From sequence record NC_028656.1: a stretch of DNA of 64,000 nt. The stretch is one strand, 5' to 3'. The position numbers are program-made. Source of the DNA: Enterobacteria phage VT2phi_272. Positions within the stretch are counted from its first letter, which is position 1; each line of letters opens with the position of its first letter. Below, in pieces: positions 15,001 through 21,000 of this stretch.

Positions 15001-18000
15001 AAGGGAAGCAGGTCATCCCATGTCTTGTTAATTTCGGTGATTGCCTGAGTGATCTCATTGATAATCTCATCTGATGCGGGAGTGACGTCACGCTCAGGGA
15101 TGTGATCAGCATTCAGGATGATACCTTCACCGCCCTGAGTGTTCAGGTAGTCGATAGCTGTATCCAGGCGATCGCGACGGGGCCAGTATTTGCTGGCGCG
15201 CTTAACAATGGCTTTTCTGGCCATTTCATCGGGGAAACTATCCCACGGGCTACTTCCTCCGTTATTTCCGGCTTTGCTGCACGCCCTGATGACCTCGATT
15301 TCCCTGTTGCTCATCTCTTCGGTCAGATAGTCGCCTTCGGATGTTTTTACGACACAATAACCGCCAATGCGTGCGCCCCTGTCGACGAATGGGTTGTATT
15401 TGTGCGTGGGGGCGCAGTCAATACCGTTGGACTCGTAAATGTCCTTCTCGTAAACAAGTTTGCATTGCCCCCACTGAATGGCTCCTGTGACCTGTGCCAG
15501 ATGCAGAAGCCCCATATAACTGATATCCAGGCATACAGCCTTTTTTCGTGGTACCAGATACGCCAGCTTGCTGGCCGGGTTCAGGGTTATGCCTATGGCG
15601 GCAACATTGATGATAGCGTTCTGTGCGCTGGACAGATTTCCCCGTGCTGTGTCAGCCAGAAAGGAATTTTTCTGGAATTGCTGAATTGCAAACTGACTTT
15701 CCTTAGCCCATGTCAGCGTCGGTTCAGTTAATGCTTCGCAGAAAAAGCGCTCCTGCTGTTTAACAAATTCAACGATATCGAACATTTTTATTGGTCCTGA
15801 AAATCAGAAAGGACAGGGGGAGAATTTCCTCTCCCATTCTTCTTCCGCCCGTGCATAGGCGATCGCTGAGATATAATCGTTGTAAGCCTCTTCCGCTTTA
15901 TCGCCAGTAAGTGCCAGCTGGGCTTCTTTGGGTAAAAAAAGGCTGCTCATAAGCAATGGTTTATCGGGGAACATGCTGATAAGCTCCTGCGCCCGATCGT
16001 CAATCCATTTATCCTTTTCATCCTGAATGTGCTGATTAACCCAGCGACGCTCCTCTATTCGGTCACAGGTGAGGTATGCGTTCATGGCGGAACTCCTGAT
16101 TTCGGTTAATGCATTAAATTAATTTGTCGGGAAAGCTGACAGACAGGGCAGTCACATTCTTCCTCCTGCTCCTTAGCGAAGAAATATGCAGCGGCCTGTA
16201 ATGCGATGTCTTCTGGATTTTCTGCGATAAACATAACATTGCCTTCCGTATCAATAACAGAAATAGCCTCATCAGGCAGGACAAAAAAATAGGCGATGAT
16301 TTTATCATCCATAAAAACTTCACCCATTATAGTTTCTGCTGGCGTTACGACGCTTTTTACATTGATATTAATTTTTTGATTGAGCATGATATTTCCTTTC
16401 AGGCTGGTGAGATTAACGGCTGGCCTTTATGGTTCAGGTAAACTTCTATTGCATCTGAAATAATGCGAATTTTTTCAATCAGTGAATGTGCGTAAAGTGC
16501 ATTATTAACGTTAGCTGACGCCATGTAATAACGCCCGTTGTAAAGAATTGCTGTGCCGGGTTTAACGTCCTTGCGAGAAACTAATATGGTTCCGTAGTGA
16601 GGTTTGAGCATGACAAATCCTCCGGTTAATTAATCCAGATATTTAATTTAATCCCCGATATATAATCGGGGAGAGATTTAATTAAAGATTAACGTTGAAA
16701 CCAAAGCGGGAAGATTTTTCCGATGTGCGGGAAATATCCAGCAATTTACGGCGCATTTCTTCCGTCAGATGCTTGAAGGCGTTAAATTCGGCGACAGCGG
16801 CGTCAACGTTATAGCCCTTGCTGTGTAGCTCGTTGAGGATGCGCATAGTTGGGCTTGGCATGTCGAAGAGTACGGAAGCATCAAGGCTGATAACCTTGCG
16901 ATCAACATAGTTCATCGTGGCGTAGGGGTGATGCTCTGAAAACCACGATAAAGGAAAATTGATATTCATCGCAGGAGAAGACAGAGCCAGTTGTTTCTGT
17001 TCCCATAGCTGTTTTTCCATGCGATCGAATTCAGCAATATAGGCTTCCTTGAATGCAGCTGCTTTTTTACCAGTGAAGCCCATCACCAGGAAGACGAATC
17101 CGTTTTTGGTGATTTGGTACATTGGGCGTTGTTCGCCTTTGGCGTCGGTGTAGGTAACGTCCTCAAAATTGAGGGCGTTAAATTTCTCTGAGCATTCAAT
17201 ATTTGCAATGGCACGTAATACGTTATCGTGTCGCTTGCAAAAATATTCGGCAACGGCAAAGGACGTAGTAACAGCGCGGCCATTGGAAATGGTGATTTCA
17301 GGTTGAGAAAGGACTGGGATAGTAGCCATAATGGCAGCCTCCTTGATTGGTGATTAATAACCACCGCAGGAGGTGAGAAGCTCGCTGGCGGTGGACTGTA
17401 CAGGGTTCTCACAACTGGCAATCAAGGGAACCAGCCCGACCGAAGTCGGCCCCATACAGCCCACCATTGATAAGATGTGCGTGTATGTCGATACAAAAAA
17501 AGACGCTGGCGCGTCTGTATCGCCTCGATTGTCAGCGGGGTGAGAATCCCGACACCCGTTTTATAAGGTGTTCGCCCAATATAGCCCCGGCATCACACGC
17601 AGTCAATACCGTCCTTTCTCGGAAATGCTTTGGCGATGTGGCAGGTGGGAGACCCATTTCGACCCGATTCGGCCTACTTATCTTCAGCAATAGTCCCTCG
17701 GGCCTCGCCGCTTTACGTGCGACATATTCCCGTCCATGAACCCTTCACCACACCCCAAAACATTCCCTGTATTGGTCAGCGCCAACTTCCTGCCAGTGTT
17801 GCCCGTTCTCACGCCGTTCTCGCTCTCGCGCGGGGATACTCTCTCATCGACCGGATCGCACCCGATGATACAGCACGTTTACGTGTAGGGGTCTAAACAG
17901 GTCATTGACGCTGTAAAGCTCCAGATTGTTAAAGAGCATTTTGCGGCGGGTTAAGTCGCGCCGTACGACTGATTTATGTAGCCCTGTGTAAGGGCGCGAT

Positions 18001-21000
18001 GTTTCTGGCTTGAAATAAATATAACTTGCGGTTATTTTCATGTAAATACCGTCGGTGCTTTTTTAAGGACGAGAAATTATTACTTAACTGATTTTTAAAG
18101 TGATTTATTTTTTAAGGGGACAGATAACAGGAGGGGATATGCAAAGAAAAACCCGGCGCATGGGCCGGGCTATTTATCTGGTCCTGTTCTCATTCAGTAG
18201 AGTAGGGGCCAAGAAATCGCACTCCGTTGAAGTGAATAAGATGAGAAGGTGCATCAGCCACCCATACCTCTGTTTCCCATGCGATTTCACCAAGATATCG
18301 CCCCATGATGGAGCGATTTGGAAAAGCGGTCACATAGACAAGTCCGGCTGTTGATCCGGCAAACAGCCTGGCAAGCTCAGCATGCCGCTTCCCATCAACC
18401 GGTCCATGACTGGTGACAGACTCAACCAGTAGCAGCCAGTTTTTCGCAGTAAAATGTAGCACCACATCTGGCATTTTACCGTGTGAATCCACATCAACAC
18501 CTAGCCCGGCCAGCAGTGGAGCGTCGAAGTAGCCCCACTTTTCGCCAGTGTCGCCAGCATAGACCAGCACGCTACCCGGAGCAAAACGTGGGGCGAAGTC
18601 CTCTATTATGGCACGGATAAGTTCGCTGTGCTCGCCGGGACTGAGGGTTATTTGCTGGCCCGCAGCAATTTCAACAGGGATACGATTCTGTTCGCGCTCC
18701 TTAGCATAGCGGGTAACCAGCGTTTCACGCTCGGCTAAATAGGTTGCAAGGCTATCGTGCCATGCCGGGCTGCCGAAAGTGCGTAGCATGGACAGAGCAG
18801 CAGGTTCGATCTGATAAACAGCCTTCGGGCTGTTCACTGGGCGATCGGGCTTGTCCGGATTGTAGAGGGCTACTCCAGCAGCGCAGAACTGATGCATAGA
18901 CTGGCGGCGGAATGTCTCACGAGTATTGGGTGCGTAGACCTTGCCGTAGTGCTCCCGAACCCAATTCATGATTGGTGTAATGCCCACAAGCGGATTTTCC
19001 GCGTCGGCCCATGCTTTTCCCGGTGTGAGGTTCAGGAGTGCCAGCAAACACAAAGCAGAACGCTCATTCTGCTGCGCTCTGGGCAGGCCTAAGGATGCTA
19101 TAATTTGCTGAGCGGCCTCAATATAATCATTTTGGTTGTTCATGCAGTCAGAGCTCCTAGCTTAGCGTCAATATGTTCTTGCGTGAGAGTTTCTTGTTGC
19201 ATAGCCCACTTGCCAAGCTCTATCAGAGTGTCACGGCTTGGGTACTTAATCATCTTGAGGTCGGTTGCATTGACCTGTGTATGCCCGTTGAAGCGACGGA
19301 AATACTTATCCACTGCGGTAGTGTTCAGGAACACGGCCAAGCCACGGGCCAGCGCCTCGGGTAACCCATGTTTGTTCTCATGAAACACGTTCATGTGATT
19401 TTCAAATCCCAACACTGAATACTCACTGAAGGTAGCAGGATCAACGACGCTTGCTACCACTCGGCGCTTTTCCTCCTTCGACGAGAAACGACGCACCACA
19501 CAATAAAAACCGTTCGGGTAAAGCCACTTTTCTGTCTCGTCGTTGCGCATGATTGCGTTGGGTTTCTTCAAACCTTCCACAGGCCAGACAGTGCTACTCA
19601 TACTCAAATGGCTCGGGTAGATCAGGGGAACAGTTCCTTCTTCTGGCATGCTGCGCAAATGAGCTTTCAGTCGGAAATCAACTATCGGTCCGGTCGATAC
19701 CTTCACGCCAATATCAGCCAGCGAACATTGTACGGCAGATGATAACTCAATGGTGCTTTTCTCGAGCGTGGTCGGCACATGAATAAACCGCTCCGAATCG
19801 TCCGGGTACACAATCTGGTCAAATGGGTGTTCGTAGGTGACCAGGTCAAAAAAGCTATCATCGGTCGAAGTTGTGACTGTAACAGCCTCCTGACGGCCTC
19901 CACGCTCCAGGCGGATGATAATATTTTCCTGCAACACATCGTCATCCCTGAAAGCTTTGCTACGTGATTCGAACAAATGAATATGGCGGATTGCTGCCCG
20001 CTCAAGTATGAAATTACGGAACGGACGGTAATACGGTCCGTTGCAGAAACTACGTGGGATTATGGCCACTATCTGCCCGCCAGGTGCAACCTCACCTACA
20101 GCCAGTGCAACAAAGGCGGAATACAGATTTACCGTCTCGATACCGACAGTGCGAAGAGCCTGCCGGTGGGCTGACTGGCTATTGATCTTCTTGTAAGGCG
20201 GATTAAGTATTGCATGGGTATAACCTCGATCCTGTAGACCTTCGGCGGTTGCCAGCTCAATATAATCCCCTTCGATGATGCGGGGCGTCACTCTCCTGTA
20301 CCCGGTTAAGTGCTTCGCAAGGTGACCACACAGCTTTTTGTCGATTTCGTAGGCTGTTGCCTCGACAGACTCAAAGCCAAACTCGCCAACCAGCCAACGG
20401 TCGAGGAAGGCGCAAGACAGTGCGCCTAAACCAGCGCCTGCGTCCAGTAGACGGCAAGTTTTCATTGTGCTCGGTGGAAACAAGGAGGCCATAAAACGGG
20501 CCACGCCAGAAGGCGTCATGAACTGGCCGAACTCTGCTTTGTGTTTACGCGCGGTACGGGGAGACAGCTCGCGACGCACGCTGTCTGCGACGTCTAGCTT
20601 TTGAAGCATAACTAATCCTCTTTACGTGGCATGATGATGCCAACGTGCTTTTGACATCCTCCACATTCTTCAGGCGTGAAGGATGTCAAATCACTCTGTG
20701 AGCTCAATCAAAAGTCTCATCATTCCACTGCGATTTGATGACCTTTCCGACAAACTGGCAGTTTTCGTTACACTCAATCATGTCGAATCGTGGGTTGAGC
20801 GGCTCCAGGTACGCTTTACCGCTCTCACGAATGAATCGTTTGAAGGTAAATTCATCGCCGTTCATTCGGGCCACGCAAAAATCGCCATCCTCGATTTCCC
20901 GTTCAGGGTCAACGAGTATCAGCATACCTTCAGGGAAGCTGGGTTTACCACCCTGCGGTGCGGTCATTGAATGCCCCTTGACCTCCAGCCAGAACGACCT

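Follow-up and report, generated by a model that had tools for sequence, protein, structure and literature searches.

The genome of Enterobacteria phage VT2phi_272 (NC_028656.1) raises the question of what occupies the place left of cI where the early promoter pL and the antitermination gene N would be expected. In the 64,000-nucleotide (nt) stretch that we analyzed (the window), that place is a gap of 534 bp (17606-18139) in which the list of open reading frames (ORFs) contains short overlapping entries only. A sequence-only reading of this DNA had described about 530 bp without a convincing ORF left of the restriction-modification genes, in the order cI, restriction-modification genes, terminator, gap, small-RNA unit, and Rha. 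The ORF list agrees, and each of these features was placed as stated. The same reading had expected pL and N here, and pL with a nutL-type leader was located at this position. What did not survive was the claim that the gap holds nothing recognizable, as it shows 95% identity to the phi80 pL–N leader with its annotated nutL. The apparently empty DNA is pL plus a phi80-type nutL leader that is cut just before the N start. From pL to the junction, its anatomy comprises a leader with boxA, hairpins, and an N-leader element, joined there to a cassette built around small RNAs. At about an even chance, we read the gap as the early-left control region of an N-less phage, in which nutL has been kept and boxA probably recruits Nus factors without N.

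The relationship to phi80 defines the extent of the leader. By blastn, window positions 17622-17938 are 95.3% identical over 317 nt to phi80 (NC_021190) 32826-33142, the leader between pL and N that carries the annotated "nutL boxA" and "nutL core," an assignment that rests on GenBank annotation and is labelled "putative" there. A three-way alignment places the start of phi80 homology at boxA and its end at CCAAAGCATT (17622). Past CCAAAGCATT, phi80 runs for ~35 nt to the Shine-Dalgarno sequence and ATG of N and then on to the tL1 terminators, whereas the window enters the promoter of an isrK-like RNA. Alignment and promoter match together place this junction at 17578..17621 (minus strand), and the position of the phi80 N ORF is occupied in the window by the isrK promoter. 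Just ahead of the junction lies a 132-nt element (17759 to 17628, minus strand), recognized by homology and fold, with no N gene behind it. Its predicted structure has a ~21-bp closing stem (−63.5 kcal/mol, z = −4.5). The element is part of the phi80 leader, is ~92% identical to an mEp234 segment that stops ~18 nt short of the N-like start codon, and matches the same pre-N place in 933W-type Shiga toxin (Stx) phages. It is found directly upstream of unrelated N start codons (phi80 N and HK97/933W-type N) and is not in Rfam. The lambda N leader is RNase III-sensitive, and by analogy the 132-nt element may serve several phages as an N-leader element for translation control or processing; in the window, no gene is left for it to govern. 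Phages of the type of P13374, an O104:H4 phage, have lost 17643-17747, which is most of this element, and retain the boxA-hairpin core intact.

The boxA itself, TGCTCTTTAACAA (17938 to 17926, minus strand), is an exact 13/13 match at about +73 of the pL transcript, counted from the predicted start. It is the sole exact match within the window, against an estimated chance expectation of ~0.002 in the 128 kb of both strands. The boxA and its spacer are identical over 14 nt to the Escherichia coli rrn sequence ugcucuuuaacaauuua (PMC2724277, Table 1), and GCTCTTTAACA satisfies the functional boxA consensus GYTCTTTAANA (PMC5725501). It also aligns with the annotated phi80 "nutL boxA," which reads TGCTTTTTAACAA and differs in this respect from the full consensus of the window. 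A weak boxA-like sequence had been suspected from sequence at 17935-17946; a boxA on the minus strand is real, but it is not weak, and it lies at 17926-17938.

Beyond boxA, we examined how far the leader is conserved. Relatives gathered from IMG/VR by an exact 20-mer from the leader amounted to at least 120 viral loci, which have in common a core of boxA plus hairpins (17938 to 17776, minus strand). Across these loci, conservation opens exactly at the first base of boxA, and the upstream flanks are unrelated. Two adjacent hairpins follow boxA. The smaller, CACG-UAAA-CGUG (17874..17885, minus strand), maps to the phi80 "nutL core"; in 40 sequences, 98.8% of alignment cells are paired, with one compensatory change from G-C to A-U. 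The larger is a 35-nt hairpin (17873 to 17839, minus strand) of 12 pairs, defined by RNAalifold and pair counting. Half of its pairs (6/12) have changed on both sides, while 99.4% of cells in the 40-sequence alignment remain paired, and the window carries its own U-A pair where other sequences show C-G. When the 3′ partners were slid by 1-3 columns as a control, pairing was 33-46% with zero compensation, and none of 500 shuffles matched the observed score (0/500). We regard the covariation of this hairpin as solid but not overwhelming. Rfam has no family for the leader element, and a relaxed-threshold scan of 17560-18180 gave noise. A covariance model of the core found one copy in the window, at 217 bits, with the next match at 10 bits. 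Given this single copy and the lack of any boxA with three or fewer mismatches on the plus strand of the pR operon (21700-26250), the window has no nutR or putR equivalent.

Gene content around the core was then compared among the IMG/VR matches listed. Fifty-seven have a lambda-like cI upstream on the same strand, only 8 have a phi80-type N downstream, and none has a lambda-type or HK97-type N. Their first downstream genes are extremely diverse; no protein family is common to all beyond recurring kil, gam-like, exo, and similar genes, and no universal small basic protein was found. Among these loci, N is missing from every one of the 42 in which boxA fits GYTCTTTAANA, and a C4T boxA variant is present in each of the 8 with phi80-type N.

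Upstream of the leader, a pL-like promoter, TTTACA-17-TATATT (18046 to 18018, minus strand), matches the consensus at 10 of 12 positions. We call it pL mainly because of a comparison with the Oslovirus Stx2_PV11-77, which has a different sequence and extra accessory genes upstream. There, the register is kept by an aligned TTGACT-17/18-TATATT, and the shared sequence sets in at 18012, directly downstream of the −10 hexamer. The pattern suggests the classic picture of an immunity-specific operator and −35 region joined to a shared transcribed region, with transcription predicted to start near 18011. Operators at pL are probable: operator-like dyads surround the promoter, and AATAAC-N-G...GT, read from the sequence, is common to its spacer and that of pR (21466-21482). 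A search for 15-mers shared by OR and the putative OL returned weak matches only, so the operator assignment rests on promoter-register similarity to pR and on the heteroimmune relative. The operators and −35 of phi80 differ from those of the window because immunity differs. Between the predicted pL start and boxA lies a further hairpin, GCCCU-UACAC-AGGGC (17981-17995, minus strand), whose 5-bp stem is that of lambda boxB with a different loop; it occurs in Osloviruses and not in phi80.

The search for N covered all six frames of the 64 kb. In tblastn, phi80 N, the HK97/933W-type N of mEp234, and lambda N gave a best E value of only ~0.1, which is chance level. Ten early ORFs scanned against PHROGs yielded no N family, and a screen of window ORFs for an Arg-rich N-terminus returned internal or out-of-frame ORFs only, none of them plausible. 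The sequence-only reading had reported no N-like gene and had proposed a relaxed tblastn with N proteins; extended to the whole window, that search adds nothing better than the chance-level hits, and all three screens bear the report out. Judged by these searches, N is absent rather than hidden.

This absence fits the identity of the phage. Over the 861 bp around the gap, identity is 100% with the Stx2a phages PA2, ArgO145, and Stx2a_F765 and 97-98% with both P13374 and TL-2011c, an O103:H25 phage; all five are Osloviruses by genus. Past cro, the window encodes a 506-amino-acid SF2 DEAH helicase (22619-24139), then a Toprim primase, without O/P, which is the Eru1 layout. By its sequence, the window is an Eru1/Oslovirus Stx2a prophage. 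Eru1 Stx phages are characterized by the helicase-primase arrangement and by the absence of N, CII, and CIII homologs (PMC8044961), so the lack of N was already known. In accessible papers, we found no description of what replaces N in Eru1 phages, and our literature search returned no account of antitermination in P13374 or O104 phages. One GenBank annotation might suggest an answer: ORF26 of P13374 (HE664024; 2413-3087 of the compared stretch) is labelled "antitermination." It is really an Ant/Bro-type anti-repressor (PHROG 1760, E = 3.5e-120), and the window lacks it.

The largest early-left-strand ORF of the gap has 65 codons (17844..18041, minus strand). The sequence-only reading had noted this ORF in the gap, and the ORF list agrees. 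Several observations argue against a gene. The final base of the −35 hexamer falls within its ATG (18041), which puts the start upstream of the predicted transcription start, and there is no Shine-Dalgarno sequence, PHROG family, or homolog. Its frame passes through boxA and the conserved hairpins, is broken in related leaders by 1-nt insertions or deletions in a hairpin loop, and meets a TAG in leader variants that carry compensatory RNA changes. The ORF is spurious.

In place of N, the leader runs into an isrK-C4-Rha cassette. An isrK promoter, TTGACT-17-TATATT (17606 to 17578, minus strand, promoter match), precedes an isrK-like RNA (17496-17571, minus strand; Rfam, 58.7 bits against a gathering threshold of 50) with a predicted intrinsic terminator inside it (17516 to 17501, minus strand). 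A C4 antisense RNA follows (17384-17471, minus strand; Rfam, 77.1 bits against a gathering threshold of 45), and then a Rha/anti-repressor-type regulator (16682-17329, minus strand; PHROG 995 and 518, E = 2e-110), which is the first translated gene of the pL transcript. The window cassette, with its isrK and C4 matches followed by a Rha/Ant-type regulator, resembles the Gifsy-1 isrK-orf45-anrP and P1 immI c4-icd-ant modules; it differs in lying inside the pL operon, right after the nutL leader, with no adjacent AntQ-like gene.

The prophage holds two isrK-C4-Rha/Ant cassettes, at 17340-17606 and 5370-5650 (minus strand). In each, three recognition segments complement one another; they read UCUCAC/GUGAGA in one cassette and UUCGAA in the other. 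Comparison of the window with P13374 shows the three segments of the first cassette changing together, from TCTCAC to TGCTAC. Such differences look like the heteroimmune c4 specificity of P1 and P7. The TAA (17354-17356) that ends a 37-codon ORF over C4 is CAA in P13374-type phages. In P13374 ORF29, the C4-overlapping ORF is fused in frame to Rha, giving 261 amino acids, an arrangement reminiscent of P1 icd-ant coupling.

These elements can be arranged into the reading that we favor, an orphan but functional nutL. The terminator of the lysogenic unit is followed by pL and its probable operators and then by a leader of ~400 nt, inherited from or exchanged with a phi80-like lineage. The N coding sequence has been lost, and the self-promoted isrK-C4-Rha cassette takes its place from 17621 leftwards, a replacement that leaves nutL without N. 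The boxA core would load host NusB, NusE, NusA, and NusG together with SuhB onto RNA polymerase with no help from N, as happens in rrn operons. Some 680 nt of untranslated RNA (leader, isrK, and C4) precede the Rha start and would be a natural target for Rho; boxA-loaded polymerase may render pL transcripts Rho-resistant across this distance, so that they reach Rha, kil, gam, recT, and exo. Lacking boxA, transcripts initiated at the isrK promoter would have no Rho resistance and would still answer to C4-type control. N would not be needed in the rightward operon, from pR to Q, because no intrinsic terminator is predicted on the plus strand between pR and the end of Q (21488-26700); the first comes after Q, from 26688. 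We favor a functional orphan nutL because the Oslovirus core is intact despite the loss of N and, in one branch, of the N-leader element, and because its boxA matches both the rrn boxA-spacer and the functional consensus. Selection is further suggested by the 35-nt hairpin, the pairing of which is kept by compensatory changes between N-less lineages.

Several points weigh against a functional orphan nutL. The correlation of a consensus boxA with a missing N is imperfect, as 69 of the N-less loci among the IMG/VR matches listed carry a non-consensus (phi80-type, C4T) boxA. The exact 20-mer used for collection means that the relatives are close ones, and the compensatory changes trace to about three lineages rather than to many independent events, which is why the covariation falls short of overwhelming. 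At 95% identity to phi80, the segment may be too young to have decayed. Nus loading, Rho sensitivity, and the transcription start are all inferred from sequence. Furthermore, rrn-type complexes act mainly on Rho-dependent and not usually on intrinsic termination, and the first barrier on the pL transcript is the intrinsic terminator in isrK (17516 to 17501). Finally, boxA-bound Nus factors can also promote termination, as at suhB (PMC5725501).

A bolder version of the same idea is that the core (17938 to 17776) acts autonomously, as a leader RNA with anti-termination or anti-Rho activity that does not depend on N, working with host Nus factors only or with an unrecognized partner. We advance this tentatively, as a possibility that falls well short of an even chance. 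If true, such an RNA would serve lambdoid prophages of enterobacteria in a large group, among them the Stx2a phages carried by the O104:H4 and O103:H25 outbreak strains, and phi80 "N" would be an accessory rather than a defining component.

Alternatively, the segment could be a pure relic, a nonfunctional nutL left by recombination, with early-left expression supplied by partial read-through and the cassette promoter. Neither N (tblastn, PHROGs) nor nutR is present in the window, the P13374 lineage has already deleted 17643-17747 of the leader, and 95% identity to phi80 is what a recent acquisition would leave; as in Gifsy-1 (PMC4825925), the isrK promoter would be able to drive Rha alone. A decaying relic is harder to reconcile with a boxA that is perfect in all 42 listed consensus-form N-less loci, which span several unrelated flanking contexts. 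The known P13374-type deletion spares the core, and compensatory changes between N-less lineages keep the hairpin paired. On this evidence we hold a pure relic to be the main rival, with a substantial probability that is nevertheless clearly smaller than that of a functional nutL; even a relic would record the swap of an N module for an antisense-RNA/anti-repressor cassette.

Another explanation is that the core is bound by an unrecognized phage factor, an analogue of N, or acts as an autonomous antiterminator RNA that is put-like in principle. Pointing this way are a structured hairpin under selection, the wide occurrence of the element downstream of pL in loci with no known N, the great diversity of N proteins, and a 94-amino-acid ORF with an Arg-rich ELRERRRIARNS motif in some related loci. 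Set against this are the lack of a protein family common to all listed loci except kil, gam, and exo, the lack of a credible Arg-rich small ORF in the window, the lack of similarity to the HK022 early region, and a single-copy element, unlike putL/putR. Taken together, these leave the explanation improbable. The 94-amino-acid protein is encoded in IMG/VR loci L043, L048, and their relatives, at ~590 nt past the 20-mer marker located after boxA, and has an Arg-rich ELRERRRIARNSAHEG motif; those phages could have an N analogue in this protein, which is absent from the window.

The comparison with HK022 put deserves a separate statement, as a put-like cis-acting RNA had been offered from sequence as one way to dispense with N. 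In principle the two are alike, both being cis-acting leader RNAs with two adjacent stem-loops in a lambdoid phage without an N-type antiterminator. Identity with put is rejected: blastn found no similarity to HK022 26000-34000, and the window element is single-copy, confined to the left operon, with no putR-like twin in the pR operon, so that the analogy could not be upheld. The window element has a boxA, and none is known in put; our scan of HK022 covered the GCTCTT core only.

We consider it highly improbable that phi80-type or another N from a co-resident prophage acts in trans on this nutL. In favor of such supply, lambdoid prophages are numerous in Shiga toxin-producing E. coli genomes, and in phi80 a nearly identical leader has N alongside. 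Against it, among 5426 complete E. coli genomes only 77 have phi80 N (each at ≥99% identity, those listed being mostly laboratory strains), the Oslovirus-type leader occurs in 147 genomes at a median of one copy per genome, and Eru1 phages are reported to yield phage in E. coli C600 (PMC8044961).

The orphan nutL was compared with characterized antitermination sites. With phi80 pL-nutL-N, it has in common the boxA position, the "nutL core" hairpin, the 132-nt element, and the placement downstream of pL. As in lambda N/nut, the site lies just past pL, boxA precedes one or more hairpins, and a structured leader element comes before the N position; unlike lambda, the window has no N as first pL gene and no nutR. 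The lambda boxA, CGCTCTTA, is weaker, whereas the window boxA is rrn-type, and the window hairpins lie ~40 nt downstream of boxA, covary, and have loops that are not GNRA-like as in lambda boxB. With rrn boxA, the window has in common the 14-nt boxA-spacer identity, a location at the 5′ end of a long untranslated transcript, and no phage protein at hand; it differs in its context, a phage pL leader, where no rrn boxC was identified. An N-independent boxA is a concrete candidate for the different mechanism of early antitermination that the sequence-only reading had suggested.

The possible significance of this locus lies in toxin regulation. In 933W/H-19B-type Stx phages, the route that leads from induction to Q and the release of toxin includes N-dependent read-through. 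Eru1/Oslovirus phages, including the O104:H4 and O103:H25 outbreak phages, have no N, and the locus described here offers a concrete, mutable candidate for their escape from termination. Should Nus factors alone suffice, rrn-style antitermination would extend to phage early operons, through a cis element whose mutation should alter early gene expression.

The neighboring genes on the cI side, all from the ORF list and on the minus strand, are cI (20704-21417), a methylase (19140-20609), and a BsuBI/PstI-type endonuclease (18190-19143) of 317 intact codons. The ArgO145 record (4851-5805 of the compared stretch) annotates its BsuBI-type endonuclease as frameshifted, with in-frame stops; the window copy is intact. 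Directly after the endonuclease stop codon, an intrinsic terminator (18171 to 18150, minus strand) with an 8-bp stem, including 6 GC pairs, followed by TTTTCTTTG, closes the lysogenic cI-methylase-endonuclease transcription unit.

Elsewhere in the window, an adenine methyltransferase gene (2276-4215) seems to be interrupted by an insertion sequence; in the PA2 annotation, two methyltransferase fragments flank a pair of "mobile element protein" genes. At 33762-33878 lies an ALIL frameshift pseudoknot, a signal of the IS3 family. STnc100 and AsxR, an anti-stx2 small RNA, score well above threshold at 28840-29099, just downstream of stx2AB.

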